From Jimgerdemannia flammicorona (lineage: Eukaryota): 33,310 nt of DNA. Below, one piece after another: positions 10,103-33,310 of this stretch. The notes under the pieces were generated by a model, which had not been told where the DNA came from, ran no database searches, and was given only the letters and a program-made list of their open reading frames with translations. Both the position numbers and the translations under genes were made by a program. The stretch is from assembly GCA_003990765.1 (NCBI GenBank), contig RBNJ01000316.1:1-33310 (forward strand), read 5' to 3'. The stretch's first letter is position 1. Every line of letters starts with the position of its first letter.

Positions 10103-10104
<2 letters not shown>

Positions 10105-10182
<78 letters not shown>
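10105..10182. repeat. Poly(T) tract
   Basis: About 78 nt of nearly pure T. Confidence 0.9.
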
Positions 10183-10183
<1 letters not shown>

Positions 10184-10705
10184 GTTGGTTTGGTTTGTTT
10201 TTTGGTTTGTTTTTTGTTTTTCATTTTGCTTCATCCATAGCCATTTCCCCGCACATTCGTCTGTCGCTTAATTTGCTTTGCCCTCCTTTTCGAACCGTTC
10301 CTCTCATGTCAAAAAAAGCTCATATCCTTTTGCTGATGTTTTTCTGTAATAAAAGTGCGCAACCCGATGAATCGGTACGAAAAGTTTGATTGAGCTCGAA
10401 AAACAGCTTTAGTGAACGAGGCCAAACAATTGACCATGTTGCCCGTTGTGAATCTAAACTAGCTGAATACCAGTCAACGCAATATTTCAACGCGACATTT
10501 TTTATTTTATTTTCAAATGGTGCTTTTTATTCTCTTGTGGATCGACAGATGCAACTTGAAGGATGATCCCAACAGCACACGCTCGTAACAAGAAACCGAT
10601 GTAAACGTAAAACAAAATAGGACGGGGAAATGCAGCAAAAGCAAATGATGTAGCGCAACCTGTATATGAAATAAGATAAACCAGGATAAAAATGAAATGA
10701 AATAC

Positions 10706-10777
10706 AAAAAAAAAAAAAAAAAAAAACAAAATAAAAAAAAAAAAAAAAAAGAAAGGGAAAAAGAAAAAAAAAAAAAG

Positions 10778-10820
<43 letters not shown>
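10706..10820. repeat. Poly(A)-rich tract at the gene/transposon boundary
   Basis: About 115 nt of nearly pure A immediately before the Copia relic. Confidence 0.9.
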
Positions 10821-10822
<2 letters not shown>

Positions 10823-10839
10823 GAAGTCAGTATTAGCAA

Positions 10840-11812: not shown

Positions 11813-13257
11813 TGTAACAGTAATCCCAGAATAATGACATCAGCTTAGAATACAAGAAGATCATATGATATATGAGATGAGTAATAATGACCAACTGTGA
11901 GTCATTGTGACCACAGTATGGGTATCTTGAGGAATATAAAAAAAAGAATCAAAGAACTGCAGTAGCAGCAACTAATAAACCCACCAATTCCAAATAGCTC
12001 AAAGACTTACCACAAATAAAATATCTACTACTCACTAAACCTCAAGGTCAAGGAACTATCAAGATATCTCAGTAGAAGAAAGAATATTCCAAGACATCAG
12101 AAGAGCCATGATGACTAGCTCAAGAAGGACTCCTAGTGTCAACCTGGGTACTGGTGACTCTTATTATTATATTCTCTACTGTCATGAAATAGAAACAAGG
12201 ATCACCATTGCTACCGAATACCTTCAAATATGACAGGAATGAAATAGGAAACCTCCTCTACTGGAAGTTCCCACAAGCCAGTACTCAAGAGCTATAAGAT
12301 GCTATTTCTATAGATATATATGAAATAAGGACAGCTAAGAAGATACATCAGATCTTCAGGTATGTACTATAATCAATCTCCAACTTAGAGTATATTAGAG
12401 TCTCAGATTTCAGAGATCTATCAGCCCACCATATCAATACACTAGAAGCCAGAGTAGCTACAGAAGTCCAGTCTACTATTACTCTTAATAGTGACAAAGT
12501 AGAAGACTTCTGGTATCCCATCCTCTAGGACAACCCAGACTAATTCCTATAAGAATTGATCTTAGTATTCCAAGGCCCAAGCATCCAGATTAGATCTCTC
12601 CAAGATTCCACATTTGTCCCCTATTTTGTGGAAGAGAATCTCATTCCTTGTTCCTGTCACTGCCAAATGTGATGACATCATCAGTGATGACATCATCCCA
12701 TGTAACATATATGAGATGTGCATCAATAACAAATTCATAGACCTCATCTCCTTCGAAGACATCCTGACCTCTGATGAGGATGAAGCCTCTATGGTCTTGA
12801 ACATTCTGCTCTAAAGTTCTGATGTGACACTGAATTGTACCAGTACTGGTATTCTGATGTGATACTGAATTATTCTAGTACTATTTTCCTATATCATCGA
12901 AATTATACTAGTATTCTGAACCTGTACAACCATCAGTACCAACCCTGGAACTTAGTAGTTTTTCCTGTTCTGGTATTTTATTTTAGTTATTATTTAGCTT
13001 TATATCTTAGCAACCATTGAATTATATTTTATATAAATACTCCTCTTATTTCCTCTGAAATAAAGTCAGTCAAGTTCACTTATATACACTTCCTTGTAAG
13101 CAATCTAAGAGATAACAAGACAGTTCAAAGATAAGAAGTTTGAGGACTATAAGATCTTGGGAAGGCACTCCAATAATAACTTACTTATAACAAACTTAAG
13201 TTAGTCTAAGAGATATATCTTGACATATTTAAAGAACTCAGTGACCACTACATAATA
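11813..13257 (+). repeat. Gypsy A 5' LTR (~1445 bp)
   Basis: Direct repeat of 24264-25810. TATAAA at 13032, AATAAA at 13059, followed by act-TGGTACCC (PBS). Confidence 0.9.
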
Positions 13258-13260
13258 ACT

Positions 13261-13280
13261 TGGTACCCATTGGCTGGTGA
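13261..13280 (+). promoter_or_regulatory. Primer-binding-site-like sequence of Gypsy A
   Basis: TGGTACCCATTGGCTGGTGA lies 3 nt after the LTR; the sister element has TGGTGTCCATTAGCTGGTAA at 28900. Cognate tRNA not assigned. Confidence 0.7.
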
Positions 13281-13383
13281 TTCAAGATGAATCCCTCACT
13301 TTCAAGCTGAAAAACAAATAACCACCACAACAACTACCCTGATTACAAGAGTAACCCCTATAAGAATTCAAGATAAGATAGAA

Positions 13384-15248
13384 ATGTATCCTCTCACATT
13401 CTATGGATATGTATACTACTGAAGAGTCAATCCTGACCTTCATTGAAGACTTTGAAAAATTTATCACTATACAGGCTCTTTATATAGATGTGCAATTGAT
13501 CCTTCTACCAGTCAGCCTCAGAGGACCTACCAGAGACAAGTTCAATGCAGCCACTATTGCTGATAATGGTGCAGCCAAACTTGCCAATATGAAGACCTTC
13601 CTCAGAATAATATACTATACTGAAGAGATCAAGCAAGCTCTCAAGGATCAACTCAACACTATCTGCCAGGAACTTAGTGAAGATTCCAACTCATTCTATA
13701 CCTGAATCTGCCACCAGATTGTCTTAGCTGGCTATGATGATGCTCTCAAGAAATAAATAGCAGATTCAACCTTCCTCAAAGAAGTTCACCCTTAAATTTC
13801 TCTAGCAATCTGATCTACCCTAGCTGCACTGACCCTTGATCAGAAAGTAGTCTTTATATAGAGATATTGGACTGCTAGACACTCTGCTGAACACTCAATG
13901 GAGAAAATAACTGGTATCAAGATGGAGTCATCAAAGCCAACTAGTATCATACCTGCTATAGTTGTAAACAGACAACTATCCCCACCTATCTCCAAGACAA
14001 CCAAAGCTGACCCAGTGGAGGAACTTACCAAGCAGTTTGCTGAGATGACTACACACCTTGGTGATGTTGTTAGAGAAGTCTAAAGTGCCAACAGGAGACC
14101 AGTGTGGAGATTTGCAGCTGCTATAAAATAATGCAATATCATATACTTTAGATGTAAAGAAGAAGGCCACTATACAAAGAATTGCATAATCAAAATAAGA
14201 TGCAAAGCCCAACTAAGCAATGCTAGCAGAACTAGAGAACAAACCAATATAGTTGTCATTGAGAAGATTGGTGATACTGATGATGAAGAATACTATGAGG
14301 AGCTTGAATTCTACCCTACTACTGAAGATACCAGAACCCAGTCCAAGCCCTATGACAAGAAGAGCAACAGCAAGCCAGTTGGAAGACCAAAGAAGACTCT
14401 AGCTGTCACTATTCAAAGTAAGACTCAATCCAAGGAGATTGATCAAGATATGGAGTTAGATGAAGCTACTCACCAAATCATTGAAGACACTACTCTAGTC
14501 TCAGGAGAAAGTAAAAGCAAGAAGAAACAGAAGCTGCACAAGACCAAGATCCACCAGTATGATATCTATAAGAATCTTAAGGAACAGAAGGTCAATACTA
14601 CTTTTGGAAAGCTAGCCAAAGTTCCTGCCTTCAGACAGTAGTTGAGAGTAGGACTTGTAACTATTACCAAGAATTAAGAGTACAAGATTGTAGAAGCTCA
14701 CAATGTACAGGAAGAATCAGAAGACTCAGGTGAAGAATCTGAAGACCAGTGCAAGATATCAGCCTATACCCCATATCAGATTGAAGATTATATCTTTGAT
14801 ACTATCATTGATACCAGTGCTGGAGGATGCCTTATGAGTAAGAAGACAATTGACCACCTAGGCTGGGACATTGAAGAGTCCACCAAGATAGTCTATATTA
14901 TAGTAGATGGTACACTAGCTATTCTCCTTGGCAAAATCCAAGAAGTCCCTATTAAGATAGGAGGAGTTACCATCCTAGTAGATGTGATTGTTACAAGCAC
15001 CACCAACTATAATATTCTCATTGGTAACCAATGGCTTCATAAGACCAAGGCCATCATTGACCTCAATGCCCAGAAGATATAGATCAACTATAGAGGAAGA
15101 AAGGTATGAGTCTCTATCAATATCCACAAAGGAGTCCTACCAGATATAGAGGAAGGAGATGAAGAGAACACATAAGTCTTTATGCACTTAGTGAATAAGA
15201 ACAAGAACAAGAGTAAGACACCCAAGCTTACAGATGAGCAGTGATACA
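13384..15248 (+). pseudogene. Gypsy A gag and aspartic protease (disrupted)
   Basis: Gag-like ILTFIEDFEKF...SLRGPTRDKF, zinc-knuckle remnant CKEEGHYTKNC (~14150-14190), protease IIDTSAGGCLMS...ILIGNQWL. Many stop codons. Confidence 0.85.
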
Positions 15249-15414
15249 TGTTGAGATTTCTAGCTAATCAACTCGGTATGTAGCTCACGTGAAGGTGGTG
15301 CAGCTCACATGTGAGGACGTCATCAGTAGAAACGTCATCAACACGTAAATATGCGCTTCGCACATATCAATAAAGATTGCTCCTTTATCCCTCAAATTCC
15401 AGTATTTCACAATA
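15249..15414 (+). repeat. Young Copia 5' LTR (166 bp)
   Basis: TGTTG...CAATA; 152/166 identical to 20369-20534. Confidence 0.95.
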
Positions 15415-15426
15415 GGTTATGAGCCC
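15415..15426 (+). promoter_or_regulatory. Copia PBS of the half-tRNA(iMet) type
   Basis: GGTTATGAGCCC directly after the LTR, resembling the Drosophila copia-type PBS GGTTATGGGCCC. Confidence 0.85.
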
Positions 15427-15488
15427 TGGTTAGTGGCTAACCAAAACACCTCTTTAATATACGCTACACTACTCTATGCGCAAAAGAG

Positions 15489-18400
15489 ATGTCGAATACG
15501 CCAGGGAGTCCCTCGGTGGGTGCCGGAACAGGTACCGGAACGGGTGCCGGAATGGGTACCGGAACGGGTACCAGAACAGCCCCAGCGGCAACTACTATGA
15601 CCGTCACGACGACGTCAATTCCAGCCCCAGCGGCTATTACGACAGTGCAAACGTCCAAGAGGTCCATCTCTGTCTTCGATGGGAAATATTATGCAATCTG
15701 GGCCTATCATATGAAGAATCTCCTTATCGAATGTGGCTTGGCGGACTACTGGAAGCCGCAAGCACAGATTACGGGATACAATGTCGCTAACGACGAGAGA
15801 GCCTTACGCGAGATTACGTTCACACTATCTAACGCACAACTGAAACACGTCATCTACACTACAACAGCAAACGAAGCCTGGGAGATCTTACGCGATCTAT
15901 ACCAAAAGGACTCCGCCTCGAACAGATTCCACTTGAAATCGCAACTATTCAGCCTACGGATGAAGTCCAAGGAGACAATCTGTAAATACGCCGATCGGGT
16001 TGACGAGCTGACGAATCACATTAACGCTCTAAGCGCACCAGCGGATTACGTCAAGGACGACGACAAGGTCCTGGCCCTTACACGTGGCCTTCCCGAGGCG
16101 TATAATATCGTTGTCATCGCGATGAGGGAGAGCGGTAAGCTTTCGGACTACAAACACGTGATAACGAGCCTCCAGAACGTAGAATCTCAGGCACAGGAGA
16201 ACAACAATGACGAAAGAGCACTCTACGGCTCGCGTGGATGAGGCAAAAAGCAGCGCAAGGGTCAACACGGCAAAAGCCAGCGTGACAAAAGCCAGCAAGG
16301 CCAAGACCAATCAGAGAAATTCGACGGGAGCTGCTATTATTGCGGCAAGTATGGACACCATGCGAATGAATGCATGAAAAAGGAAAAGGACAAGGGTGGA
16401 AAGAAAGGAAAGAGTGGCAAGCAAGCGAATAGTGCAGATTCTAACGCTGATAAGGGAGGATTGTTCTTCACCAATGTAGATTCGGACCCTTTTGGACCAG
16501 TGAAAAATGCGTAAGCCACCCCGACATCTACGAGATCTAGTTCTACATCCACCAGCGCCAGTTCTACCTGCAAATGCGCTTACTCGACATCTACGGAACC
16601 CGACATTCAGAATACTTTTCAAGGTGCGAAAAGTGGCGGTGACATAAACAGCACGTGCGCCAGCGCCAGAGACGAGTATACACCAAGCGCTAACATTACA
16701 TGCGACGAAGAGGACATCTGGCTCCTAGATTCGGGCGCATCCCAGCATATGACTTCACACCGCAAGTGGTTCTCTACATATGAACCCTTTGACAACCCCG
16801 TGCATATCAGATTGGGCGATAATAAGGTTATATATGCTCAGGGGAAGGGCAACGTCAGCATGTATTTGCATGGAAACATTAAGGAACCCTACGCGACCTT
16901 TATGGATGTACTGTATGCTCCAGGGATAGGAAAGAACCTCTTCTCGATGGGTCGAACACTAGCACGAGGGGATAAGCGAATCTCAGGAACATGCAATGGC
17001 GTGAAGATATACGATCTCGACGGCAAAGAAGTATTAATGACCAGGAAGCATGGATACTTATACGCAATAAACGGAATGCCAAGTGGCACAGCTGCGGTGA
17101 ATGCAGCGTGGTCTGGAACGACCAGCGTAGTGTATACCTGGCACTGGAGACTCGGACATATCAGCCCGACAAGCCTCGAACGTATGATAAGGAATGGTTC
17201 AGTGAGCGGACTCCCGGACAACTTATGCCCGGACCATATGCCATGTGATGATTGCGCGATAAACAAGGCCTGTCAACAACCCTTCCAGGAACAGATGAAA
17301 CGAGCCTCAGGGATACTCGATTTGGTATACTCAGACGTATGGGGACCTGCGAGAAATAAATCACACTCTGGGAAGAAGTATTTTATTATGTTCATCGACG
17401 ACTATATGTGCAAGGTCTACGTATACCTTATGGCGGCGAAGAGCGAAGCTTTGGAAAAATTCGGAGAATACAAGGCTATCATCGAAAACGAGACCGGACG
17501 TAAAATTCGAGCACTACGCTCAGATAATGGTAAGGAGTACGTTAATAATCAGTTCAAGAACTTCTTGACGAGACACGGGATAAAACACCAAACGACGGCT
17601 CCCTATACGCCTCAGCAGAATGGCGTAGCGGAGCGTTTTAACCGAATGGTAGTGGAGATGGCCCGTACAATGCTCAACGCGGCCGATCTATCGAAGCCCT
17701 TTTGGACCGAAGCGGTGAATACGGCGGTGTATATACGCAATAGGTGTATTTCTCGAGCTCTAAGCAAGGATGCTTGTGGCAATGATCAGCAATCCAGGAA
17801 TGAGGATAATGCTACGCCACATCAGCTATGGAGTGGAAATCGGCCCGATATCTCACATCTATGCATATTCGGAAGTGAAGCCTACGTGCTAGATAAAAGC
17901 AGAAATAAGGATAAGTTTGATCCAAAGGCTACTAAGCATGTGTTCCTCGGGTATAGCAACGGTTGCAAAGCGTATAGGCTGTAGAATCCAAGGAAGCGGA
18001 GAATTGTTAACTCCCGTGACGTTACATTTAAGGAACCCAGTGTACAGGATTCACACGTGAATATTGAGAAGACGACTACAATTATACATACGCTTCCGGG
18101 AATGCCCCTGGCAATCAACCTTACACCTCCAGCGGCCAGTACTACGCCTCCGGCGAGTCCTCCGGTCACACCCCTGAAGACACCCCCGAAAATGTCACCT
18201 ATCCCGGCGAGGATTCCTTCGCCACCTCCTGGACTGAGGATAACTGAGATAAGGGATAGCGATGACGAGACTAGCGAAGCGGAGATGATTCTCCCATCTA
18301 CGAAAGGTAAACAAAAGCGCAAATCCAGGATATTGGATATGGATCTAGGAGACTATTGGAATGTTCTGAAGACCTGACGCAAGCATCACGTGAACTATGC

Positions 18401-20030
18401 TTGCGAGTGCGCATACTTGACAACGGTGGATCCACGATCATATGACGAAGCCGTATCCTCCCCTGATAGCAAGGAGTGGAAGTGAGCGATGGATGAAGAG
18501 TATAATTCGCTCATCAGCAATGGTACTTGGGATCTAGTACCTCTTCCGAGGGATCGTCAAGCTATAGGATCTTGTTGGGTATATAAAGTTAAGCGTCAAA
18601 GCAATGGAAGCGTAGAGCGGTACAAGGCACGCTTCGTTGCTAAGGGATATTTACAGGATTACGGCGTAGACTACGACGAGACGTTCTCTCCCGTATTCAA
18701 GCTCACTTCTCTATGCATACTACTGGCTATCGGCGCCGAGTACGATTACGAAATACAGCAGATGGACATTAAGACTGTGTTCCTGAACGGTGACGTAGAT
18801 ACGGAACTATACGTCCAACAGCTGCAAGGATACGAACTATACGATGGGCAGAAAGAGCTCGTATGCAAACTACGTAAAGGGTTATATGGAATCAAGCAAG
18901 CGGCGAGACTATGGAATCGGAAGATCGATCAATATCTGCTTGACAACGGATTTCGGCGGTGCGAAGCGGATCCATGCATATATATGCGACATACATCCTC
19001 AGGAACGGTATACTTGGGGATATGGGTCGATGACATCATAATCGTTGGCAAGAGGAGCCAAGTTAACAAAGTAAAAGCTACGCTATGCCAGGAATTCGAG
19101 ATGATAGACTTAGGCGATGCGTCCTTCTTATTGGGAATAGCGATTACACGTGACAGAAACAAGCGCGCTATACACCTATCCCAAGCCACCTACGCTAAGC
19201 AAGTACTTGAATGATTCAGGATGAGCGATTGTAAGCCAGTGGCGACGCCAATGGAAACTACGACGAGGCTAAGGAAAAGTGACCCTACGCCCGACAAGAA
19301 CATCCCCTATAGACAAGCGGTGGGATCCCTTATGTATCTTATGTAAGAAACGTGACCAGACATCTCCTATGCAGTAAACAAAGTGGCGCAGTATGCCTCA
19401 TGCTATGACAACTCGCATTGGACGGCAATTAAGCGCATATTCAGGTACATCAAAGGAACAGCGGACTATACGCTCAGTTTGGGCGATGATAAAGGACAAA
19501 GCGGGAGTCACATGCATGTCTCCAGAGCTTGCGACGCTGATTGGGCCAGCGACCTCGACGACCGGCGCTCTACAACCGGATATCTCTTCCATATCGGCAA
19601 AGGGGTTATCTCGTGGCAAACACGTAAGCAATCATCGGTGGCCACATCCTCTATGCAAGCGGAATATCAAGCATTGTCCACAGCAACTAAGGAAGCCGTA
19701 TGGCTATGGAAATTACTAAAGGAATTAGGGTATACTCAGAAATGAGACTCTACGCTGATCTTACAGGATAATCAATCTATGATTGCATTAGCAAAGAACC
19801 CTATACATCATGCAAGGACTAAGCATATCGACATTCAACATCATTATATAGGTGAATGCGTGGAAAACGGTACTATATGCCTGGAATATATGCCAACGGA
19901 GTCTATGACGGCGGATTCTCTTACGAAGGCCCTTCCAAGGCCAAAATTCGAACACTGCGTGCAAGGGATGTGTCTTACGAGCAACCCTACGCTATGGCCA
20001 GGATTCAGGGACCACCAACAACAACAATAA
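15489..20030 (+). pseudogene. Copia Gag-Pol polyprotein (~1513 codons) with 9 in-frame stops and no frameshift
   Basis: FDGKYYAIW gag, CYYCGKYGHHANEC knuckle, WLLDSGASQHM protease, WHWRLGH/CDDC, YSDVWGP..RSDNGKEY..NGVAER integrase, YKARFVAKG..QMDIKTVF..WVDD RT, CDADWA..AEY..DNQS..KHIDI RNase H. All ORF pieces share one frame. Confidence 0.95.
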
Positions 20031-20368
20031 TCGACGCAAATCATGAGACTTTCCTAACAGCAAAAAGCCTCCAACATATACATCTTACATCCCCTATGAA
20101 CATTGCACATCCGTACTGCATTTCTATTTGCAAGCAAGCAAGCAAACATTTCAAGCGGACATCCATTTCGGACATTCGGACTGTTTATCAGTTCCTAGCG
20201 CACCCTTTCTACTATGTATTCTACCTATTTTAGTGCTTATAAGCAGGGAATTCGGACATTTTTAGGTTGATAGATAGCACCCATTCTACCTATCATTTCC
20301 TGCATTGCATTCATTAGTTAGTTAGCATGCATTTCTGCAGTTTGAGCGCATATCTCATTGAGCGGGAG

Positions 20369-20534
20369 TGTTGAGATTTCTAGCTAATCAACTCAGTATG
20401 TAGCTCACATGAAGGTGGCACAGCTCACGTGTGAGGATGTCATTAGTGGAAATATCATCAATGCGTAAATATGCACTTCGCGCATATCAATAAAGATTGC
20501 TCCTTTATCCCTCAAATTCCAGTATTTCACAATA
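20369..20534 (+). repeat. Young Copia 3' LTR (166 bp), preceded by PPT TTGAGCGGGAG
   Basis: Direct repeat of 15249-15414, followed by TSD ATACA. Confidence 0.95.
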
Positions 20535-20760
20535 ATACAACATGATCATTGATGGCTATATCCCTCAAGGAAGATGCCCCTATGGTATTAGGATGTACTG
20601 CTCTGAACACCTGAATGACTGCTGGTCCTATATCAGTGAAGTCAGGAAAATCTGCTAACAGAAACATAAGTAAAGAGCTACTGAAGTAAAAAGGAAAGCT
20701 GAAGAAGATGACCAGCTCCCCAAGCTTCAAGCTAATAGTGATGATAAGGAGGAATAAGAA

Positions 20761-21183
20761 TCAGATATCACCCTCAAGGTCAAGAAGTTTTACCCTGAAG
20801 CTAAGATCCCAGAATACAAGACTGAAGGAGCCATAGGAATAGACCTTGCCAGCATTCAAGATGCTACTCTTGAACCACAGACCACCACCCTACTTGGTAC
20901 TAGAATTGGAGTCAAGCTACCAGAGAATCATACTAGAATTATCAAGACCAGGAGCAGTCTGGTCAAAAGTGAAATCTCAGTTAAAGGAGGAGTAATTGAC
21001 CCTGATTACACTGGCAAGATCTTCCTTATAGTCAGAAATCACAACCCCATCACCCCATTCAAAGTCAAGAAGCATGACAGGATTGGTCAGATGCTGATCC
21101 ACGAAATCAAGAAGCCCAAGATCACTGAAACCATCAAACTCATCAAGACCAAGAGAGAAGAACAAGACTTTGGATCTACTGAA
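20761..21183 (+). pseudogene. dut: Trimeric-type dUTPase domain within Gypsy A pol
   Basis: Stop-free frame lacking an upstream ATG: KTEGAIGIDL (motif I), KTRSSL (II), GGVIDPDYTGKI (III), DRIGQM (IV), REEQDFGSTE (eroded V). Confidence 0.92.
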
Positions 21184-21399
21184 AGAGGAGTCTATGTATG
21201 CTACCATTAAGATTACTAAACTTGAGCACAAGAAAGACAGGGACCAGAACAAGCACACATATACTATTGGAGACAACTTTCCCCTAGAAGAACAACTTCT
21301 CAAGATCCTGTACCAGAATGAAGGAGTACTTGCTACAGACTTCAGAGATATCTACAATCAAGAACTCAAGTACTATCATAAAGTTGACACTAGTAATAC

Positions 21400-23900
21400 C
21401 AAGCCCATCTACCAGAAAGCCAGACCTATATCACCTGCTTACAGAGAATAGCTGCAAGCAGAACTCAAGGAAATGGAAGAAGCTAGAATCATCAAGCAAG
21501 CTATCAGTCCCTGGGCTTCACCTATTGTCCTTGCCCTGAAGAAAGGAAGTAAGCCTGGAGAGTTTACACCAAGACTCTGCATTGACTACAGAAAGCTCAA
21601 TGCAATCATCAAGAAGGATAGGCAGCCCTTGTCAAATATTCAAGAAATCCTTACTATTCTTGGAAGCAAAGCCAAATACTATACCACCTTGGATCTGTTC
21701 TCAGACTTCCATCAGATCAGTCTCACTCAAGATGCCAGTGAGAAATCAGCCTTCATCACATCTGATACCACCTATATCTCCTGCGAATGCCATTTGAAAT
21801 GTACAATGCCCCAGCAAGTTTCTAGCAAATAATGAACAGAGTCTTCAGCAATGAGATTGGAAAATAGCTCTTTGTCTATATTGATGATATGATCATATTC
21901 AGCAATACTACACAGAAATATGTCAATTACATATAGCTAGCTCTCAAGAAGCTCAAGGAGCATGGCCTTTACATCAAGCCCAAGAAATGTAAGTTTGCAG
22001 CTCAGGAAATTGCCTACCTAGGACACCTCATCAACCAGACCAGAATCCACACAGACTCCATAAAGATTGAGACTATTACAGCCTACCTGAGACCCAGAAC
22101 AATCACAGAAGTCCATGTCTTCCTTGGACTGGCCAGCTACTACAAAAGATTCATCAAAAGATACTCCAATATTGCAGCACCTATCTATAAGCTACTAAAG
22201 AAGGAAACTAAATTCAAATGAACTAAGGAATACCAAGAAACCTTCAATGAACTCAAGACCAGATTGATCCAAGCATCTATTCTCAGAAGATCAGATTGGA
22301 ACCTAGAATTCATCCTACAGATAGATGTAAGTACTGTAGAACTTGGAGCAGTCCTAGCTCAAAAGAAAGATGGACATGAATATGTTATCTCTTATGTAAT
22401 CTAAGATACCTATAGAGTAGAACAGAACTATAAGTCATACAAGCTCGAATGCTTAGCAGTAGTTTGGGCAGTAGATAAGTCCCACTACTACCTAGCTGGG
22501 AAACACTTTACTGTTTAAACAGACCATTCTGCTCTTGCTTGACTATTCTACACTCTGAATTCCAAAGGAATATATACCAGATAGATCTACAGGCTACAAG
22601 AGTATAACTGTACTGTCAAGCACTGCTTAGGAAGAACCAATACTAATGCTGATGTACTCTCAAGGATACCCTGAAATACTCCCATCAAGACTATTCAATA
22701 TAAATAAGAAGTTATACTATGGATTAATCAGCTATCTTGTGCAGTAGAAGATACCCAACCACCTCAAACTCTGGACAATCACCATCATCAACTAGATTTA
22801 GAAATAGTTTGAATAGATAACACTATACTCAGAAAAGGAAGAAAGCTAGTAATACCTGAATACAAGAAGTATCAAGTAATGAAGGAAGTATATAAGCAAG
22901 GATACCTAGAAGGAACCAATACATATGATAAGGCAAGAAGAACTATGTGGTGGCCCAAAATAGAAGAAGAGCTATACCAATTTGTCAAAGGATGTGACAA
23001 GTGCCAAAAACAGAAATAAGATCAGCAAGACCAGGCACCTGGGTCATCAAGAATTGAGCCTATCCCCTTCCACCACATTATAATGAATATTATTGGACCA
23101 CTACCAGTAACACTATCAGAAAACCACTATATTATAGTTATTGTAGATCTCTTTACCAAATAGATAGAAGCAGGAGTATTACAAGAAGCCAATATTCTGT
23201 CTATAGCTAACTTCCTGTACTAAGAAATCATCTGCTGCTACAAGACACCAAAGCAAATCACAACAGACCATGGTACAGAATTTATCAATGGATTCTACAA
23301 GATAATGTATCAGAAATACAAGATTCAGCACATCAAGACTACTGCATACCACCCTCAAGGAAATAGATAGATAGAGAGAACCAATAAGACTCTTAAGAAC
23401 ATTCTGGCGAAGATCTCAGAGATATATGAGAATTGGGATAACTACCTCCCAACTGCCCTCTCTGTTCTATAAGATATATAGTCACAGAGCACACACTTTA
23501 CCTCAAGTAAACTGCTCTTCAGAGAAGAAGATTCTGATGAAACCTCAGCTACAAATCTAGACCTAACTTGGAGATGGGTTGATACAGAAATCTGAAGACT
23601 ACACTAAATCAGAAAGAAGGCTAAAGATTATATTATCAAGTCACAAGCACTGATAAGGAAAAATGCAGAAAAGAATCACAAGACCCTAGAACCTATCCAA
23701 ATCAGAGAAAAGGTTCTACTATATTGAAATATAGTAGAAGTCTTATGGTTGTGAAAACTAGAGCCCAAATGGAAAGGATCCTTCTATGTGTAAGATACAT
23801 ATCAAGAGAACTACCTTCTGGCTTAGAAAAATCACAGGGACTATACTGTCTATCATGGTACATAGAAACAGACTCAAGAAGTACTATGAACCTATATAAG
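21400..23900 (+). pseudogene. Gypsy A reverse transcriptase, RNase H and integrase (disrupted)
   Basis: RT: SPWASPIVL, RLCIDYRKLN, LDLFSDFHQI, VYIDDMIIF. RNase H: FILQIDVS, LECLAVVWAV, TDHSAL, NADVLSR. Integrase: CDKCQ, IIGPLP, TTDHGTEF, TTAYHPQGN. Confidence 0.92.
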
Positions 23901-24274
23901 AGAAGCAAAATGTAATGATCACCTATGAGGTTCTAGTCTGTGAATCATAACAGCATATCTTGTAACCAGCAGGCTATCTGTCTGGACCATTCTCTAAGAG
24001 ATATGGTACCAGCAACTACTCATTCATGAGACTTTCGAAGCCAGAGGAGTTTGAACCATCAACTGATTAATCAAGATCAGAATCAGGCCCTTGCTCTATA
24101 TGAAGGGAGTAACTCTTCACCATCATGCCAAAATACAAAGAGAAGACACCAGCTCATAAATACCACTTTTCAACCCCTTGCTAGAGGTTATGGGATCAGC
24201 AAATTTTTCAGGACTAGACTAATGAACAAGGACATTCAAGAAGATTCTTATTCAGGAGAAAGATGTAACAGTGA

Positions 24275-25321
24275 CCCCAGAATGATGACATCAGTACAAA
24301 AGACAGTCTTTTCTTGCAAGCTACTAGATTGGAATACAAGAAGATCATATGGTATATGAGATGAGCAATGATGACCAACTATAAGTTATTGTGACCACAG
24401 TATGGATATCTTGAGGAATATAAAAGAAGGATCAAAGAACTGCAGTAGTAGCAACCAACAAGACCCACTAATCCAAAAATAGCTCAAAGACTTACCATAA
24501 ATAAAATGCCTGCTGCTTGTCAAATCTCAAGATCAAGGAACCACTAAGACACCTCAGTGGAAGAAAGAATATTCCAAGACATCAGAAGAGCCATGAGGAT
24601 CTACTCAAGAAGGACTCCTAGTGTCAACCTAGGTACTAGTGACCCTTATCATTATATTCTCTACTGCTATGAAATGGAAACAAGGATCACTATTGCTACT
24701 AAATGCCTCTAAATGTGGCAGAAGTATGAAATAGGAAACCTCCTCTGCTGAGAGTTCCCACAAGCCAGTACTCAAGAGCTACAAGATACCATTCCTATGG
24801 ATATATGTGAAACAAGAATAGCTAAGAAGATACATCAGATCTTCAGGCATGTATCATGATTGATCTCCAACTTGAAGTATGTTAGAGTCTCAGATTTCAG
24901 AGACCTGTCAGACCACTGTATCAATGCACTAGAAGCCAGAGTGGCTACAGAAGCCCAGTCCACTATTACCCTCAACAGTGATAAAGTAGAAGACTTCTAG
25001 TATCCCATCCTCCAGAACAACCCAGACCAATTCCTGCAAGAATTGATCTCAGTATTCTAAGGCCCAAGTATCCAGGTTAGATCTCCCCAAGACTCTATAT
25101 TTGTTCTCTATTTTGTGAAAGAGAATCTCATAGACTAGAGAGCCCCAGACCTCCTTGTTCTCACTGCTACTAAATGTGATGACATCATTGGCAATAATGT
25201 CATCCCATATAATATATGCAAGATATGCAATAATGATGAATTCACAGACCTCATCTCCTTCAAAGACATCCTGACCTCTGATGAGGATGAAGCCCCTATA
25301 GTCTTGAATATTCTGCTCTAA
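24275..25321 (+). pseudogene. Degenerate U3-encoded accessory ORF of unknown function (~349 codons); second copy in the 5' LTR at ~11824-12814
   Basis: One frame without frameshift in the 3' LTR. It has 11 internal stops, 6 of which are CAA/CAG/TGG sense codons in the 5' LTR copy. Codon style resembles the element's pol. Confidence 0.72.
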
Positions 25322-25323
25322 AG

Positions 25324-25428
25324 TTCTGATGTGATACTGAATTATACTAGTACTGACATTCTGATGTAACACTGAATTATGCCAGCACTAGTATTCTAAT
25401 GTGATACTAAATTATTCCAGCACTATTT
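25324..25428 (+). repeat. 35-bp tandem repeat, 3 copies in the 3' LTR (2 copies in the 5' LTR at 12817-12886)
   Basis: Units starting TTCTGATGTGAYACTGAATT at 25324, 25359 and 25394. Confidence 0.85.
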
Positions 25429-25810
25429 TCCTATATCACTGAAATTATACCAGTATTCTAAACCTATATAACTATCAGTGCCAACCCTAGAACTTAACAG
25501 TTTTTCCTGTTCTGGCATTTTATTTTAGTTATTATTTAGCTTTATATCTTAGCAATTATTGAATTATATTTTGTATAAATATCCCTCTTATTTCCTCTGA
25601 AATAAAGTCAGTCAAGTTCACTTACATACTCTTTCTTGTAAGCAATCTAAGAGATAATAAGACAGTTTAAAGATAAGAAGTTTGAGGACTATAAGACCTT
25701 GAGAAGGCACTCTAATACGAACTTGCTTATAATAAACTTGAGTTAGTCTAAGAGATACACCTTGAAGAAAATCTGGTATATTTGAAGAACTCAGCAACCA
25801 CTATATAACA

Positions 25811-25955
25811 ATAATATACTATATGCTCAGATAATAGATACAAATATATCAATAGTATATTTAAGCAGTTCTTGAGGAAATACAGTATATATTATTATAC
25901 AACAGTATTATATGTTATAGTAAAATAATATAGCCAAGTAATTTAACAATATGGC
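25811..25955 (+). mobile_element. Copia relic A, continuation of the integrase after the Gypsy insertion
   Basis: ctatatgctcagataatagatacaaatatatcaat...ttaagcagttcttg aligns to young-Copia ctacgctcagataatggtaaggagtacgttaat...ttcaagaacttcttg (RSDNG region). Confidence 0.8.
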
Positions 25956-27250
25956 TATTAAAATATCTTAGTTATAGCAACTTAATATATATATAGTAAT
26001 ACAGCCTATCCCTGACTATATCATTATATAAATATTATTAATATGTATAAAAGTATATAAGTTAGTATTAATAAACAATACTCTCTACTTCTCTACTCTT
26101 CTAAATATTTTATAACAAAATGTTATAAGTCCTGCTAGTGAAAGCAGATAATAAATATATCTCTAATATATATATTATACTATACTATAATATCAGTCAA
26201 TATAAGTAATATATAAAATATGAGCCAACCAAGTAGTATAAGTAAAATAGAATCCAGAATAGATACCAGTAGCATAAGTATACCTAATATGATAGTCATG
26301 ACTATAGTAGTACTGATGATGATAAAGAAGATAATTTCTGTCTTCAATAGTAAAGATTATACTATATGAGTATACTATATAAAAAATCTCTTAAAAGAAT
26401 ATAGTTTAGAAGATTACTAAAAGCCACAGGTATAAGTAATGATATACAAAACTATGAAATATTGTAGAATACTAAGAGAGATTATATTCACTCTTTTGAA
26501 TATATAAATAAAACTTATCATCAATACTATAATAGTAAATAAAGCCTGGGAGATCTTATATAATCACTACCAGTAGACATTTGCATCAAACAGATTCCAT
26601 CTGAAAGTACAACTGTTTAATCTCTAAATAAAGTCTAAGAAGAGTATCCAAGATTATACCAATCATATTAACAATCTGGCAAATCAAGTGAACTTTCTTT
26701 CTATGTTGACAGAACTCATCAAGAATGAAGACAAGGTTCTGGCCCTTATATTTAGCCTTTCCAATATATATAATATAGTTGTTATTACTATAAGGAAATC
26801 TAGTAAACTATCAGACTATAAGTATATTATCATAAGTCTTTTAAATGAGTAATTAAGACTAAGTGGCAATGATAACAATAATGGTAATAAAAAAGCCTTC
26901 TATAGAATATATGGGCAAGGCAAAGGTAAGCCAAGTAAATGATGAGACCAAGGCCAGTAATGTGAAAAATTTAATAGTAAATACTTCTACTATAATAAGT
27001 ATATATATTAAGAGTAAGATTACAATCATAAGAAAAAGAAAAAGAGTAGTCAAGATGAGTAATATGGACAATAGTAGATAAATGTCATAGATAATAATAA
27101 CAATAGTAATAATAAAAGTAGTAGAAATAATGAAGGTTTGTTTTTCACAAAAGCAGTGACCTATCTATATACAGAAGGAGTTATAGGAATAGAAAATATT
27201 GATGTTAATACTAGCATAAATATAAGCTATATATCAAGCTCTTATATATA
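25956..27250 (+). mobile_element. Degenerate Copia relic B: eroded 5' LTR, PBS remnant and gag
   Basis: tattaaaatatcttag resembles tgttgagatttctag; PBS remnant gttataagtcc at ~26122; gag colinear with 15489-16470 (for example aaagcctgggagatctta and gacaaggttctggccctta). Confidence 0.8.
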
Positions 27251-27269
27251 TAGCAAAGAAGTTTGAGCA

Positions 27270-28397
27270 TCCTGTATCTAGGAATGAGATCTGATATTTT
27301 ATATACTATAAATAAGATGGTATAGTACTCATCATGTTATGTCAATTTATATTAGAATATCATTAAGAGAATTTTTAGATATATTAAGAAATGTCATACT
27401 ATATACTTACTCTCAATAGATTAAACAAAAGTAATAGTAATAATAATAATAATAATAATAATATACAACTATCTGATATATGTAATACTGATTGGACAAG
27501 AGATTTAGATGATCACTAATCGATAACTGGATACTTCTTTTGATTAAATAATAAAGTGTTTTATAGTAAATATATAAGTAGAATTCAGTAGTAATATCAT
27601 CTATATAAGTGAAGTATCAAGTATTATCTATAGTAATAAAGTAAGCTATTTAACAATATCAACTATAAAAGAAACTCAGATTTAATAAGAAATAATACTA
27701 TACTTATGTATCTATCAGAATAATTAGTTTATAATTGTTATGATAAAAAACTCTATTTATTATAGTAAAATTAAATACATTGATATACAATACTATTATA
27801 TAAGAGAATATATGGAGAATAGAACTATATATTTGGAATATATCCCTATAGAATATATAATTATATATTTACTTATCAAAGCCCTTCTGAGATCAAAATT
27901 TAACCAATATACTAAAGAAATAAGTCTTATAATGAATTATATACCATTAATAAATAATTATAGGATATTTTCATAATAATGAAAAGAAAGCAGAAAAATA
28001 ATACAATATATCTTTCTATATCTCTCTCTTCAAGTATTATATTATAATTATTCATCAGTTCTCCTTTTTCTTCTTCTTTTATATTTGAGATTTTCTACTA
28101 TTAAGATCTATCTATATCTTTTATTTTCACTATAATTTCTTATATTTTAAGTATGGGTAGATAGTATTCTTTTAATATATTTGAAGTTATTTTATAGTTA
28201 TTACTTAGTTATATTATATTCTTATATATTATCTCATTGAGTAAGAATGTTGAAATTTTTATTATTTTAATATCTTGATAATATGACTTATATGTATATA
28301 ACTATGTCATTTTTGAGTTATATCACTCAATGTGTAAATATATACTATCTGGAGTAATAAATAATATTTCTCTCTTCTCTCTACTCTATATTTCAAC
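27270..28397 (+). mobile_element. Degenerate Copia 3' end: RT C-terminus, RNase H, PPT and 3' LTR (~28248-28397)
   Basis: KNSIYYSKIKYIDIQYYYIRE versus KNPIHHARTKHIDIQHHYIGE; tatctcattgagtaagaa|tgttgaaa versus tatctcattgagcgggag|tgttgaga. Confidence 0.82.
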
Positions 28398-28402
28398 TAA
28401 GA

Positions 28403-31400
28403 TATAATATTTTCAAATAATTAAAAATCTTCTCTTAATATTAAAATATTCTTATCTTTTCTCAGTACTAAGTATTATAATGGTTGATCTGAATTAGAAA
28501 CATAAATCAGGAGAATTAGATATTTGATTACAATACCTGAACCCAATTCACAATATAGCATAGCCATATAAATAGCAGTCATAGAACTTTGCTACTAGAG
28601 AATACTTTGCTACTAGCAAATACTTTACTACTAGTGAATACTTTGCTATTAGCAAAATAACTCACAATATAGCCACCTTATAGCTAGCAAACTTATATAA
28701 ATAAAGAGTGAATAAACCTCAGATTGCAATAGTTCAAAAATAAAGAGAAAGTAAAGGAACTAGTAAGCCTACAGGTAGATATACTTTGAACTTATCCACC
28801 CCTGCATTCCAAGAACTCTGCAGAGTCAAAGAAGATCAAGTTTTCAAGATACAGAAATCTGATATACTTCTAAGGTTAAGCATCTACTATGTTACAACTT
28901 GGTGTCCATTAGCTGGTAATTTAAGATAAATTCCTCACTTTCAAGCTGAATAATAAACAATCACCACTACCCAAATAATCATACAAATTGAACTAAGATA
29001 TCTAGACAAGATAGATATGAGATCACCAGTATTCCATAGTTATGCTTCAGATAAGTCAATCATCATCTTTATTGATGATTTTGAGCAATATACTACTATA
29101 AGGAGCCTGATAGCAAGGCAACAAGTAACCCTCATGCTCTTCAGTCTCTGAGGACCAGCAAGAGCAGTATTCACAGCTGCAACCTATGTAAGAAATAATG
29201 ATAATGCTATATTAGTAGTTCAGAAGACCTGACTCCAAGCCACATACTATATAGATGAGATCAAGCAGACACTAAAGGATCAGCTCAATACAATATACTA
29301 AGGAATGAGTGAGGATCTAAATACATTTTATACTAGAATCCAATATCAGATAATCCTTATAGATTATACTACTACTATCAGGGATTAAGTAGCCAAAGCA
29401 ACCTTTATGAAAGGAATCTACTCAGAGATAGCCCTGGATATCTGCTCATTATCAATAGTTCTAGATCTGATACAGAAGGTCACCTATGCTCAGCAATACT
29501 GAATAATCAAACACTCACAAGACTATATAATAGAGAGAGTCACTAGAGTCAGAATTGAAGCACTTAAGGCAACTAGCATAATTCCTATCATAGTGATTAA
29601 TTAAAACACACCTCAACCAAGAGCTATAGAATAATAGAGAAATAGTGACCCTATAGAGGAACTTTTCAAGAAGTTTGCTGAAATGACAGCCCACCTAGGT
29701 GATGTGATAAAGGAAATTAAAGGAAGAGACTGCTGCCCAGTTCAGAAATTTGCCACTACCTCAGACAAGAAGAGAGGTATCTGCTATACTTGTAGAGAAG
29801 AGGGCCACTACTTATATAAATGTATAAGTAAAACTAAGTACAAGGTATAGCCAAGCAATGCTACTCAAAATAAGGAACAGATCAACATCATTATCTTCAA
29901 GAAGATCAGATAATCAGATGAAGAGGAATGGAAAGTCTACTCTACTGAGACTATTAGGAAAGATGTCTGTAAACAACCCTACAAGAGACCACTAGAGAGA
30001 CTCAAGAAGAACCCTGTGAAAAAGCAGATAGAAACTGCTACAGAAAGTCAAAGTAAAGAAATAGATTAAGATATGAAGCTATAACAAGCTGTTCAAGATA
30101 TCATTCAAGAAACCACTCTAGTCAGTAAAGGAGAAAAGAAGAAGAAGCTTTGCAAAACCAAGACCTTCAAGTATGATATCTTCAAGGACCTTAGTTAATA
30201 AAAGATCAATATAACCTTTGGCCAGCTAGTAGAAATATCCACATTCAGATAGAAAATAAGATATGGACTTACTGAGACAACCAAGGAGCAAGGTTGGAAG
30301 ATAACTAAGGCCAACAATGTTCAAAAAGACTTAGGAGAAGAGAGAAAAGACAACTGTAAGACCTCTGCCTATGTAATCTGTCAAATTGAGGACAGAGTCT
30401 TTGAGGCTATCATTAATATAAGAGTAGGAGAATGTCTCCTTAGTAAGAAAGCAGCAGACCACCTAGATTGGGAAGTTGAAGAAGCAACTAAATTAGTGTT
30501 CATCATAGTAGATAGTACAAGAGCCACATCTCTGAGAAAGATCTGAAATGTCTCCATCAAGTTTGGAGGAGCAACTATTCCAGTGAATATAATTATAACC
30601 AATGTCACCAACTATGACATCCTCATTAGCAATCAATGGCTTTATAAAGTCAAGATGGTAATTGATCTAAATGCTCAGAAGATGAAGATTATCTACCAAG
30701 ACCAGAAGATGTGAATTCTGATTAATATCAATAAAGAAGTGCTGCCTAAGATAAAGAAAGAAGAAAGTGAGCAAGAAGAAGCCTATATAGTGACTACTTA
30801 GAAAAAAAAGAAAAAAGTCAGATGGATCAGTGAAGAAGAATGGTGCAAGAAGATTGCAGAAGGATATACTACAAGGAGTCTGCCCCCACAGAATCAAAAT
30901 GTACTATAGTGAGCATATCAATGACTGCTACCAATATAGCATTGGTATTAGAAAGATCTATCAGGAAAGAAGACAGAAGGCTCTCAAAAAACAGGCAAGA
31001 GAAGAGGAGGAGAAGGAAAAGGATGATGAACCATCAGCCCTCCTGAAGGATAGTGATGATGAAGAAGAAATCAAGGTCAAGATTTGGAGGATCTACTCTA
31101 ATACAGTTCTACCAGAATATAAGTCAGAAAATATAGCTGAAATAGATATTGCTACAGTAAAAGAAACTGTACTAGAGCCCCAGACAACCACCCTACTTAC
31201 AACTGGTCTGGAGATGACTATTCCAAAGAACTATATCAGAATCCTCAAGATAAGAAGCAGCCTAGCTAAGAGTGAAATCACAATTGAAAGAGAAGTCATT
31301 GATTTTAATTACATTAAAGAAATATTACTTATTGCTAGAAACTATAATATTTCCAATCAAGAAGAAGAACTGACTGATACAGATATTGATCTTCCCAGTT

Positions 31401-32140
31401 CTTCAGTCAAGGATTATAGAAGTCAAGAAGTTGGATGAAACAGAAAGAGAAAAGAAAGGATTCAGATCCATAGGAAGAGGAGTATTCATCAGTACTAAGA
31501 TTACTGAACTGGACTATAAGAAGGAGATAACTATGAATAAACATAGCTACACTATTGGAAATAAATTCCTACTCAAGAAGGAACTCAAGAAGATACTCTA
31601 TAAATTCAAGAATGTCCTAGCCACAGATTTTAAGGATATCAAAAAAAAAAGACCCCACACTACTATTATGACATAGATATGTATAAGAGATACTGAACCA
31701 ATCTACCAAAAAGCAAGACCAATACTGCCAGCCTACCACAAATGACTCAGAGAAGAAATCAAGCAGATAGAAGAAGCCAGTATTATCAAAGAAGCCAGCA
31801 GCCCCTGGGCCTTCACCAGTTGTACTAGTCTCAAAAAAAGAAAGTAAGCTAGGAGAATTGCCCCAAGACTCTGTATAGATTACAGAAAGCTCAACTTGGT
31901 TACTAAGAAGGATTGTCAACTATCACCCCTCATCAGTGACATCCTTGTAATCTTGAGAGATGAAGTACAATACTACAGCATCTTGGACTTATACTCAGAA
32001 TTCTACCAAATTGGCCTCACTGAAGCAGTAAGTGAAAAGTCAGCCTTTATTACCCCAGATGGAACCTATGTCTACCTGTGAATACTATTTGGAATGTATA
32101 ATATCTTTGCAAGCTTCTAGTGAATGATGAACAAAATCTT
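28403..32140 (+). mobile_element. Ty3/Gypsy element B (sister of A): ~0.5-kb 5' LTR, gag, PR, dUTPase, truncated within RT
   Basis: LTR ends GTTACA (28896) followed by act-TGG PBS; CYTCREEGHYLYKC knuckle; protease remnant ~30400-30650; dUTPase remnant ~31070-31475 (LEPQTTTLL..IRSSL..VIDFNY..REKKGFRSIG); RT SPW..RLCIDYRKLN. The left LTR boundary is inferred from TATAATA as eroded TGTAACA. Confidence 0.88.
28586..28657 (+). repeat. 18-bp tandem repeat, 4 copies, in the Gypsy B LTR
   Basis: ACTTTGCTACTAGNRAAT units at 28586, 28604, 28622 and 28640, upstream of TATATAAATAAA (~28693). Confidence 0.85.
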
Positions 32141-33310
32141 CAAATGCTTCTTTCTCTGCTATCTTACTGGTCACAAGGTTTGGTAGGTGACCTTCTAAGT
32201 CTCCTTTCCCCTATTATTACCCCCTCTATCTTGGGTTGGTTTGCTGTACCTGCATGGGCATGGTGGGAGGAGGTCAATGGTGATGAGTTGCCCCTTTATT
32301 AGTGTTGGATCAGTGTCTTCTCCACTTTTTGTAGTTTCTGGTGCCTTCAGCTATATCTGGAGTGCATCCATTTTGGTGTAGTGCCTTCTTCCTTTTGCCA
32401 TTGCCAATAAGGTAGTGTCTTGGTGTATCTTGGGCTATGTAGAGAGTCGGCCAACCTTGGGCATCAAGTGCTCAGTGTAGGTTACCTACAGGTCTTCAGT
32501 ACCTATGGTGGGGCCCTCTGGCTTTGGCGAGCTTCCCAGCAAGCGCAGTTCTGGCATAGGTGACTGCTTTTTGGGTGTTGTTGGGATGGGAGGGGAGATG
32601 GCCATCACAGATAGGAGGAAGGGTGATAACGGTAAACCAGTAGGGTGTCAGGCTGGGGGTGGTCATTGGGGCTGGGGCAGGTGCTGCTTTGGTGGGGCCT
32701 TTTGATTGGTACAGCATGGTTAGGTGGTAGGTGTCACTCTCAGCTTTTGGCAGTCAGCGGGGTTGGGCCCCAGTCATCAGGGGGGGTTGGGGGGCCCAAG
32801 GCTACCCATTTCAGGTATCTTGGCTGTACTTAACTAGAACCAGGAGCTGATATGGCAATGTGATCAAGGCCTGCAGGCTTGAGTAGTGGAGTATTGGGAG
32901 TTTCCTCCCACCTCATGTGTAAGTCCTTTACTCACCTCGACTGGGAGAACCAGGCCCTATCCACTATATTGTGCTTTGATGAGAGTTTTTCTTTGTCTGT
33001 CATTCTCTTTGGGGTGGCAGGGGCTATTTTATTCAGCTCAGACATAGTCTTGTACATACGTTGGGTTCTCAGGCATGTACTTTCAGTTGTTGGCATATGG
33101 TTGGGTTTTCCCTGATGGTAGGGAGAGCATGGTGCACAGAATGAGGTGTGGGCCAATATAGGCCCTACTGTGCCTAATATGGTTGAGCTGCTGGACAATA
33201 GCTAGCCTAGGTTAATGGGGGGGCAGTGCTTGGTGGGTAGTGGGGAAGGGTTTTGGTCTATATAGTCTAGGTTCCCTTCCAATAAAATTCCACAGGACAT
33301 GAGTCCATTA
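32141..33310. mobile_element. Unidentified CpG-depleted repeat interrupting or truncating Gypsy B RT; runs off the window
   Basis: Sharp compositional switch (G/T-rich on +, the opposite skew to the other elements) with very few CpG despite moderate GC. No recognisable domain. Confidence 0.4.

Follow-up and report, generated by a model that had tools for sequence, protein, structure and literature searches.

Does the long terminal repeat (LTR) of a fungal Ty3/Gypsy retrotransposon encode a protein? LTR retrotransposons are usually described as gag-pol machines with purely regulatory LTRs, and an LTR that encodes protein is seen as a trait of complex retroviruses. The question is raised by contig RBNJ01000316.1 of the Jimgerdemannia flammicorona assembly GCA_003990765.1, of which positions 1 to 33,310 were analyzed (hereafter, the window). 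There, an initial annotation made from the letters alone had proposed a gene of about 350 codons, interrupted by stop codons, at 24275-25321 in the 3' LTR of a Gypsy element, here called element A. We consider it likely that a gene of about 271 codons, functional in the past, is present once in each LTR of element A, and that it belongs to a small orphan family whose members are otherwise found only as intact ORFs on short environmental contigs. The copy in the 3' LTR lies on the forward strand at 24506-25321 (ATG at 24506, 271 codons, TAA at 25319-25321), with limits set by its relatives, by tblastn and by a reading-frame test.

Intact relatives were identified with the frame 24275-25321 read through, with X at each stop (P0001), as the query against 5.8 billion proteins. 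Among 557 candidates, three were matched as intact proteins, their lengths being 247, 271 and 215 amino acids, with E values of 2e-105, 2e-105 and 2e-78 and identities of 66-72%. A profile of these relatives, searched against 1,835,955,588 representatives, retrieved only members of the family at E<=0.001: six proteins, of which four reached E<=1e-30. A word-index profile search returned eight clusters at 90% identity, all of them from contigs 600-1625 nt long; another cluster member sits on a contig of 2375 nt. The family's contigs come from ENA or JGI, and its proteins are unnamed or labeled 'hypothetical'. Longer or fused forms (610-2000 amino acids) were absent among 7748 candidates, and no relative was present among 91 viral-contig stretches or 70 prokaryote-genome-contig stretches. 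A metagenome locus (L001), the one confirmed of 368 pattern-matched stretches, turned out to be a bacterial SMC gene beside ftsY and was discarded as a false positive.

The relatives read through the positions at which the window copy stops. At stop codon 146 of the window frame, P0002, P0003 and P0004 have Q, W and Q, respectively, and at stop codon 159 they have R, W and R; all three have W at stop codons 195, 242 and 288 and Q at stop codon 262, while P0003, the sole relative covering codon 91, has Q there. The Q, W and R codons of this alignment are exactly those that transitions of the repeat-induced point mutation (RIP) type convert to stops. The ends of the protein are shared as well. 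P0003, the longest close relative, begins MPAARQ at window codon 78 (ATG 24506), and the distant members P0007 and P0008, which are 46% and 40% identical to P0003, begin MPALR and MPPIR at the same column, so that an MPxxR start is common to the three. At the other end, P0002 to P0006 and the window alike close with ...LN(F/I)LL followed by a stop codon. Open reading frames (ORFs) of 200-342 amino acids are maintained in relatives that are 40-46% (P0007 and P0008) and 29% (P0009) identical to P0003. Because these ORFs stay open at 29-46% identity and have a common start, they are not drifting non-coding DNA and the gene is considered real. On such comparative evidence, the frame in the window is a genuine protein-coding gene, in which both the Met-Pro start and the C-terminal end are conserved.

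Translation of 24275-25321 reproduced the peptide of the initial annotation exactly, with 11 internal stops and a terminal TAA. As had been reported, six of these 11 stops are sense codons in the 5' LTR (CAG, CAA, CAA, TGG, TGG and CAA); of the remainder, four are stops in the 5' LTR as well, and one is lost there to a 20-nt deletion. The converse also held, in that seven further codons are stops in the 5' LTR only and sense in the 3' LTR. The argument that the other five stops are each one transition from CGA, CAG or TGG carries no weight as evidence, since every stop codon is a single transition from a sense codon. Seven internal RIP-type stops fall within 24506-25321, at codons 24545, 24710, 24749, 24857, 24998, 25058 and 25136. 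By tblastn, this 3' LTR copy aligns to the intact 271-amino-acid P0003 in a single frame (24506-25318, E 7e-113). The 5' LTR copy, at 12039-12811 on the forward strand, is recovered by P0003 in three segments (12039-12239, 12241-12645 and 12713-12811), and the indel list shows it split over three frames because of 2-nt and 20-nt deletions. The proposal of a frame free of frameshifts was therefore correct for the 3' LTR copy and incorrect for the 5' one. Both copies in the window are dead, with CpA>TpA RIP-type stops in each and frameshifting deletions in the 5' copy.

The reading-frame test placed the coding signal downstream of 24506. For this test the sequence was 'de-RIPed' by taking C or G wherever the two LTRs differ by a transition. 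Over 24275-25321, with the terminal stop included, the claimed frame has 12 raw stops and the other five frames 12-37; after de-RIP, the counts are 6 and 10-29. Within 24506-25318, the claimed frame has 7 raw stops (11-30 in the other five) and only 2 after two-copy de-RIP (8-22 in the other five). In a first-order Markov simulation of 24506-25318, none of 5000 sequences had two stops or fewer, and the mean was 14.3. Equal opening of the other frames upon reversion, which the initial annotation had named as an outcome that would count against it, is therefore not seen. The preceding 77 codons (24275-24505, forward strand) behave differently: the claimed frame has four stops, three after de-RIP and three common to both LTRs, and is no better there than the other frames (the antisense frames have 1-2 stops). 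The frame-by-frame stop counts thus concentrate the signal downstream of 24506, and in the alignment no relative covers codons 1-77. These first 77 codons are upstream non-coding LTR sequence, and the estimate of about 350 codons is reduced to about 271.

The gene lies wholly inside a direct repeat that has the properties of an LTR. The 5' LTR of element A (11813 to about 13259; repeat families D1-D4 and D6, and pairwise alignment) and its 3' LTR (24264 to about 25812; repeat finding, pairwise alignment and start motif) are two copies, on the forward strand, of a direct repeat of about 1.45-1.55 kb. Both begin with TGTAACAG, a motif located without any mismatch at 11813 and 24264. The 3' end of the 5' LTR was placed within about 13248-13259, as RIP blurs the exact base. 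A primer binding site (PBS)-like TGGTACCCATTGGCTGG follows the 5' LTR at 13261-13277 (it begins TGGTACCC at 13261), and the polypurine tract AGGAGAAAGA at 24254-24263 directly precedes the 3' LTR. The start codon is located 242 nt from the first base of the 3' LTR, so the ORF (24506-25321 within 24264 to about 25812) is coding sequence in an LTR, downstream of the polypurine tract, with a copy in the 5' LTR. Because the polypurine tract is upstream and the gene is inside the repeat, reverse transcription would copy the gene into both LTRs.

Differences between the LTRs are a signature of RIP. Over 1433 aligned ungapped columns, the pair differs by 174 transitions and 12 transversions, and 121 of the 174 transitions are in CpA/TpG context. 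A RIP-like pattern with CpA preference presumably points to Dikarya-type RIP rather than to Mucoromycota or Glomeromycotina. Relative to the 3' LTR, the 5' LTR lacks 33 nt near its start (24296-24328) as well as 20 nt within the gene (25132-25151). No third LTR copy was detected in the window by blastn, by strict purine/pyrimidine alignment, or by transition-tolerant alignment, which did no better than shuffles. An LTR comparison with the upstream block 9500-11813, also by transition-tolerant alignment, scored below the shuffled controls that had been made for the downstream target.

Contigs of four public sequencing runs (X1-X4, of which X1 is a soil metagenome) were aligned to 22200-25900 at 80% likeness, yielding 2782, 312, 26 and 9 contigs, respectively. 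In X1 and X2, contigs covered all 30 bins of this region. The tool itself warns against taking summed contig depth for a copy number; with that limit, the depth in X1 was 805-1653 over 24308-25051, which takes in the first two thirds of the ORF, versus 250-593 over the RNase H/integrase region, and this excess of about twofold over the internal part is as an LTR would give. A contig of X4 (24173-24321) spans the junction between the internal region and the LTR, and loose ends in X2 and X3 lie exactly before 24263/24264, as is expected for 5' or solo LTRs in other flanks. Further loose ends, with a common consensus, were present at 24336 (8 reads in X1 and 2 reads in X3); since they are shared, the region 24296-24328 is considered a recurrent variable block among copies. 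Depth in X1 drops sharply to 20-109 over 25176-25547, which comprises the sequence for the protein's acidic tail and a set of 35-bp repeats, and this drop matches the indel-rich C-terminal part of the protein alignment. Against the window, X1 contigs show T>C 179 and A>G 120 times, and C>T 59 and G>A 70 times. Because related contigs in two other studies mostly read C or G at the window's T or A, the copies in the window are the mutated ones. The aligned contigs are short (the longest pieces listed are 150-270 nt) and none spans the gene stretch. The sequencing runs contained only small word shares of the stretch (0.10 and 0.05), and no RNA run containing the gene stretch was among those listed.

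Whether the gene is part of U3 or of R depends on which promoter is used. A 35-bp tandem repeat of 2.9 copies (25324-25425, forward strand) was identified by TRF and as a 35-nt gap in the LTR alignment; it begins three bases after the gene's stop codon, and the corresponding repeats of the 5' LTR (12782-12850) number about 1.9 copies, one fewer. These repeats could act as an enhancer, or the protein encoded in the LTR could bind to them. Farther downstream on the same strand are a TATA box, TATAAATA (25574-25581), presumed to be the LTR promoter, and AATAAA (25601-25606), presumed to be the polyadenylation signal; both motifs are identical in the two LTRs. The initial annotation was thus accurate in placing the ORF upstream of the repeats, the TATA box and AATAAA. 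If the downstream TATA box is the promoter, the gene is in U3, an assignment that we somewhat favor and that depends entirely on choosing the TATA box at 25574. The gene would then be absent from the 5' end of the genomic RNA and present as the 3'-terminal cistron after pol. The RNA to be translated would be subgenomic or spliced, or else would be transcribed from a second box, TATAAAAG, on the forward strand at 24419-24426. A candidate branch point and splice acceptor (CTAAT...TAG, 24468-24483) was dropped, because the sequence of the 5' LTR is different at this place and A-rich DNA often contains motifs of this kind.

The foremost competing explanation accepts the gene and places it in R. 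Transcription would start after TATAAAAG, so that the ORF would be both the first cistron (an 'ORF0' before gag) and the last, within an R of about 1.1 kb. This arrangement is suggested by the position of TATAAAAG 87 nt upstream of ATG 24506, a box that the two LTRs share apart from one additional A in the 5' copy, and by an A at -3 of the ATG. Long R regions are also known, such as that of 2023 bp in rice Retrosat2, according to the portion of that study's text available to us (PMC3485330). With an R of 1.1 kb, the polyadenylation signal of the 5' LTR would need to be ignored. The TATA box at 25574 also lies 20 nt before the AATAAA at 25601, which fits the usual promoter/R/U5 layout, and its surroundings are the part of the LTR best covered by contigs of other samples. 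Taken together, we regard an R location as unlikely.

Several observations weigh against our reading of a conserved gene of an orphan family in the LTRs. The TATAAAAG box is one, as it bears on the choice between U3 and R. The relatives are known from protein sequence alone, so placement in an LTR is seen only in this window. The family is also small, with six representatives, and P0010 is a borderline member (E 4e-4, 18% identity). No fold, Pfam or PDB match backs any function, in searches with two structural models and 10 family members. Lastly, the gene was not encountered in a second Gypsy element of the window, element B (28898-32142), which is colinear with element A from the PBS and leader through gag, protease and dUTPase to the middle of the RT (about 45% amino-acid identity; 71-84% nucleotide identity in patches). 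Element B is more heavily RIP-mutated and is truncated in the RT, where GC rises to 0.49. Even in a purine/pyrimidine alphabet, which is blind to RIP, the 3.1 kb before its PBS (25811-28897, GC 21-26%) resembles the LTR only in its final ~15 nt: the alignment scored 30, shuffled sequence 29.5 on average, and the controls 1208 (the LTR pair) and 765 (the two internal regions). A tblastn search with the gene family gave no match at the element B region either. Because the sequence upstream of element B is unrelated, the gene is not fixed in the wider dUTPase-Gypsy lineage. From these alignments, the ORF-bearing LTR is a module of one lineage, gained or lost, rather than a constant of dUTPase-bearing Gypsy elements, and the unrelated upstream sequence of element B suggests that LTRs are exchanged as modules within the lineage.

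Such a distribution is also what would be seen if the gene were a passenger, that is, a host gene or fragment transduced into the LTR of a single lineage with no benefit to the element, its relatives being an ordinary host family. In element B, whose internal layout is the same, the LTR is unrelated and no copy of the gene was detected, and the family has no link to any retroelement domain. Extra ORFs of the transduction type exist in plants, where, in the part of the review at our disposal, they are typically described as occurring in one or few copies (PMC7264820). A passenger is nevertheless difficult to reconcile with the many contigs that cover the ORF region in two studies, at a summed depth above that of the internal part, or with the short contigs (600-1625 nt, and 2375 nt for one member) that carry the family's eight clusters and are typical of collapsed repeats rather than of single-copy genes. 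No longer or fused form, nor any annotated cellular homologue, was detected among 1.84 billion representatives, and the LTR copy keeps its start, its stop and its full length. A transduced host gene is accordingly improbable, more so than a location in R.

The notion that the frame is open by chance, because any frame is opened by reversing RIP and long ORFs in non-coding LTR DNA are also called as genes in metagenomes, draws on the weightlessness of reversal as evidence and on antisense frame -1, which over 24275-25321 has the same 12 raw stops as the claimed frame, and it is effectively refuted by the 2 stops left after de-RIP against 8-22, by the simulations (0/5000), and by the 200-342-amino-acid ORFs with a common start in relatives of only 29-46% identity.

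What the product of a conserved LTR gene might do was approached through P0003. Residues 1-45 form a basic N-terminus (pI 12.0; 10 K+R versus 2 D+E), residues 46-160 a helical core in the AlphaFold2 model, residues 161-215 a conserved region with short strands (NPILQDNPDQFLQ...FxGPxIxV...PQDP...WR), and residues 216-271 an acidic tail (17 D+E versus 3 K+R) that contains DLISF and the C-terminal LNFLL. The AlphaFold2 model, built on a 10-sequence alignment, has a mean pLDDT of 62, with values of 78-93 over residues from about 61 to 160 and below 50 over the tail at 216-271, which is predicted to be disordered. A second model, of the 40%-identical P0008, has the same helix order. The helical protein with an acidic tail that had been anticipated from the raw translation is thus borne out by both models and by the segment charges, at the level of prediction.

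The protein has no named domain, as was also stated at the outset. Pfam had no match in the six frames of the LTR and no family for the 10 family members, for which the sole row was ATG5_HBR at E 0.13. A PDB sequence profile gave 0 matches at E<=10. Foldseek had best E values of 0.68 against PDB and 0.07 against the viral models of BFVD, and in the ESM Atlas the best feature score (0.83) and the best TM score (0.33) were both below the atlas's own thresholds. In the VIA structural comparison of the two models with 48,161 PDB representatives, no chain reached Z>=5, and the best Z scores (3.7 and 3.9) were far below the tool's noise level for helical models. Within that noise, the helix-turn-helix (HTH) core of VirB (3vwb_A) appears at Z 3.4 in both models (rmsd 3.9 over 76 aligned residues and 4.4 over 77), together with SopB (Z 3.0-3.3), ParB 1zx4 (Z 3.1), KorB (Z 2.9) and sigma-F (Z 3.1); TetR and MarR rows recur too, at Z 2.5-3.3, again within noise for helical models. 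A putative HTH-like, nucleic-acid-binding core is only a lead.

A basic N-terminus, a compact helical core and an acidic, disordered tail studded with hydrophobic residues are the usual build of a nuclear activator. The protein may be a regulatory accessory protein encoded by the element. Our best single guess, and a tentative one, is a nucleic-acid-binding trans-activator of the element's own LTRs; roles as a silencing antagonist, an RNA-export factor or a particle-associated factor are less likely. A promoter at TATAAAAG inside the LTR would allow expression from any LTR. In the most far-reaching version of the hypothesis, to which we assign only a small chance, the LTR is a self-contained gene with its TATA box 87 nt upstream, its 271-codon ORF, enhancer-like 35-bp repeats and a polyadenylation signal. 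Any LTR, including solo LTRs that remain once an element has been deleted, could then be the source of a regulator acting in trans, either by activating the family's LTRs or by counteracting silencing by the host, and this would be an independently evolved fungal counterpart of the regulatory genes of complex retroviruses, with a fold that has no known relative.

The placement of the gene is familiar from complex retroviruses and unusual for a retrotransposon. The sag gene of mouse mammary tumor virus (MMTV) is an ORF in U3 of a betaretroviral LTR, and its product is a membrane glycoprotein superantigen. As in sag, a complete ORF is located inside the LTR downstream of the polypurine tract, and thus in both LTRs, and it would be carried at the 3' end of the genomic RNA. 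Whereas sag belongs to a mammalian retrovirus, the gene here is in a fungal Ty3/Gypsy element and would encode a soluble-looking helical protein with an acidic tail. The nef gene of HIV/SIV (human and simian immunodeficiency viruses) and bel2/bet of foamy viruses overlap U3 and are made from spliced or internal-promoter RNAs. Like the gene described here, they are 3'-terminal accessory coding sequences of a retroelement in an LTR, but their overlap with the LTR is partial, and here the gene is entirely within it. In the Pfam, BFVD and PDB searches given above, no sequence or fold relation to Sag, Nef, Bet, Tas or Tax was found, the best match to any viral model of BFVD being at E 0.07.

Extra ORFs are also known in retrotransposons of plants and fungi. 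Plant LTR retrotransposons may carry additional sense ORFs between pol and the 3' LTR, as described in the sections available of Vicient & Casacuberta 2020 (PMC7264820). They resemble the present gene as conserved sense ORFs downstream of pol, of unknown or env-like function there and in many copies, but they belong to the internal region, while the gene in the window starts within the 3' LTR, 242 nt from its edge, and has a second copy in the 5' LTR; the same sections contain no wording on ORFs inside or overlapping LTRs. ORF0 of rice Retrosat2/RIRE3/RIRE8 is an orphan ORF between the 5' LTR and gag-pol and, as far as the available text of PMC3485330 goes, is likewise lineage-restricted, fast-evolving, absent from related elements and carried by Gypsy elements with unusually long LTRs. 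In contrast to ORF0, the gene here is in the LTR, and the two have no sequence relation, the family being without matches outside itself. Among fungal elements, PosPlaTy3-5 of Postia placenta has the same protease-dUTPase-RT arrangement in a Ty3/Gypsy element (Novikova et al. 2010, PMC2864245). The accessible part of that article marks an 'add. ORF' of unknown function in some elements, none of which it places in an LTR. The additional gene brtn of Botrytis Boty/BcGypsy1 is similarly an extra gene in a fungal Gypsy family, but is antisense; it is known here through a citing description only (Zhao et al. 2011, as cited in the portion seen of PMC8365987). The crapaud elements have variable 5' LTR halves and, in the text available of PMC10787394, only gag and pol ORFs. 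Full-text searches of the open literature found no gene described inside the LTR of a fungal Gypsy element; outside their reach lie Zhao 2011 (brtn), Riccioni 2008 (Tmt1), Repbase, and the figures and supplements of PMC2864245, any of which could hold one.

The gene under discussion is a conserved, family-specific protein gene located wholly within the LTRs of a fungal Ty3/Gypsy element. Should this be confirmed, the 'complexity' conferred by accessory genes would have arisen in retrotransposons outside animals, solo LTRs could remain protein-coding, and a class of orphan proteins would escape annotation wherever LTRs are masked as non-coding. Alongside the dUTPase of the element, the family is a candidate for how a retroelement copes with fungal genome defense.

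The remainder of element A conforms to the Ty3/Gypsy type. Element A is a Ty3/Gypsy (Metaviridae) LTR retrotransposon with a dUTPase between protease and RT; besides the LTR pair, the PBS and the polypurine tract, it has Pfam domains in the Gypsy order of protease, dUTPase, RT, RNase H and integrase. Its forward-strand leader, gag region and aspartic protease occupy 13260-15248. The protease itself (14678-15082) is matched by Pfam gag-asp_proteas and RVP_2, and the gag region within 13260-15248 has no Pfam match. The internal region continues, on the same strand, at 20535-24263 with dUTPase, RT, RNase H, integrase, a spacer and the polypurine tract. Pfam places dUTPase at 20758-21210, RVT_1 at 21452-22221, and RT_RNaseH, Integrase_H2C2 and rve in the frame of 22201 up to about 23900. 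The position of the dUTPase match between protease and RT confirms the description of a dUTPase-bearing Gypsy family.

Element A spans 14 kb because a Ty1/Copia element is nested within it at 15249-20534 (forward strand; repeat family D5 and Pfam), interrupting the segment that ends with the protease. By Pfam, the Copia element carries gag, CCHC, a protease barrel, Pol_BBD, integrase and RVT_2. It is inserted at the junction of the Gypsy protease and dUTPase, and it has open frames of up to 489 amino acids and a GC content of 46-50%. Its terminal repeats are at least 166 nt long and 92% identical, and it is far less mutated than its host element. The nested Copia element probably inserted after most of the RIP damage had occurred.

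AT-rich blocks with a GC content of 21-29% lie on both sides of element A, at 10000-11800 and 25800-29000, and are typical of RIP-degraded repeat islands. Host genes in the window include a mitochondrial-type ribosomal protein L27 at 1521-2070 on the reverse strand, split over two frames as an intron would explain, and an adaptor-complex medium subunit at 3975-4502 on the forward strand. As ribosomal protein L27 and the adaptor-complex medium subunit flank the element, the host is eukaryotic.

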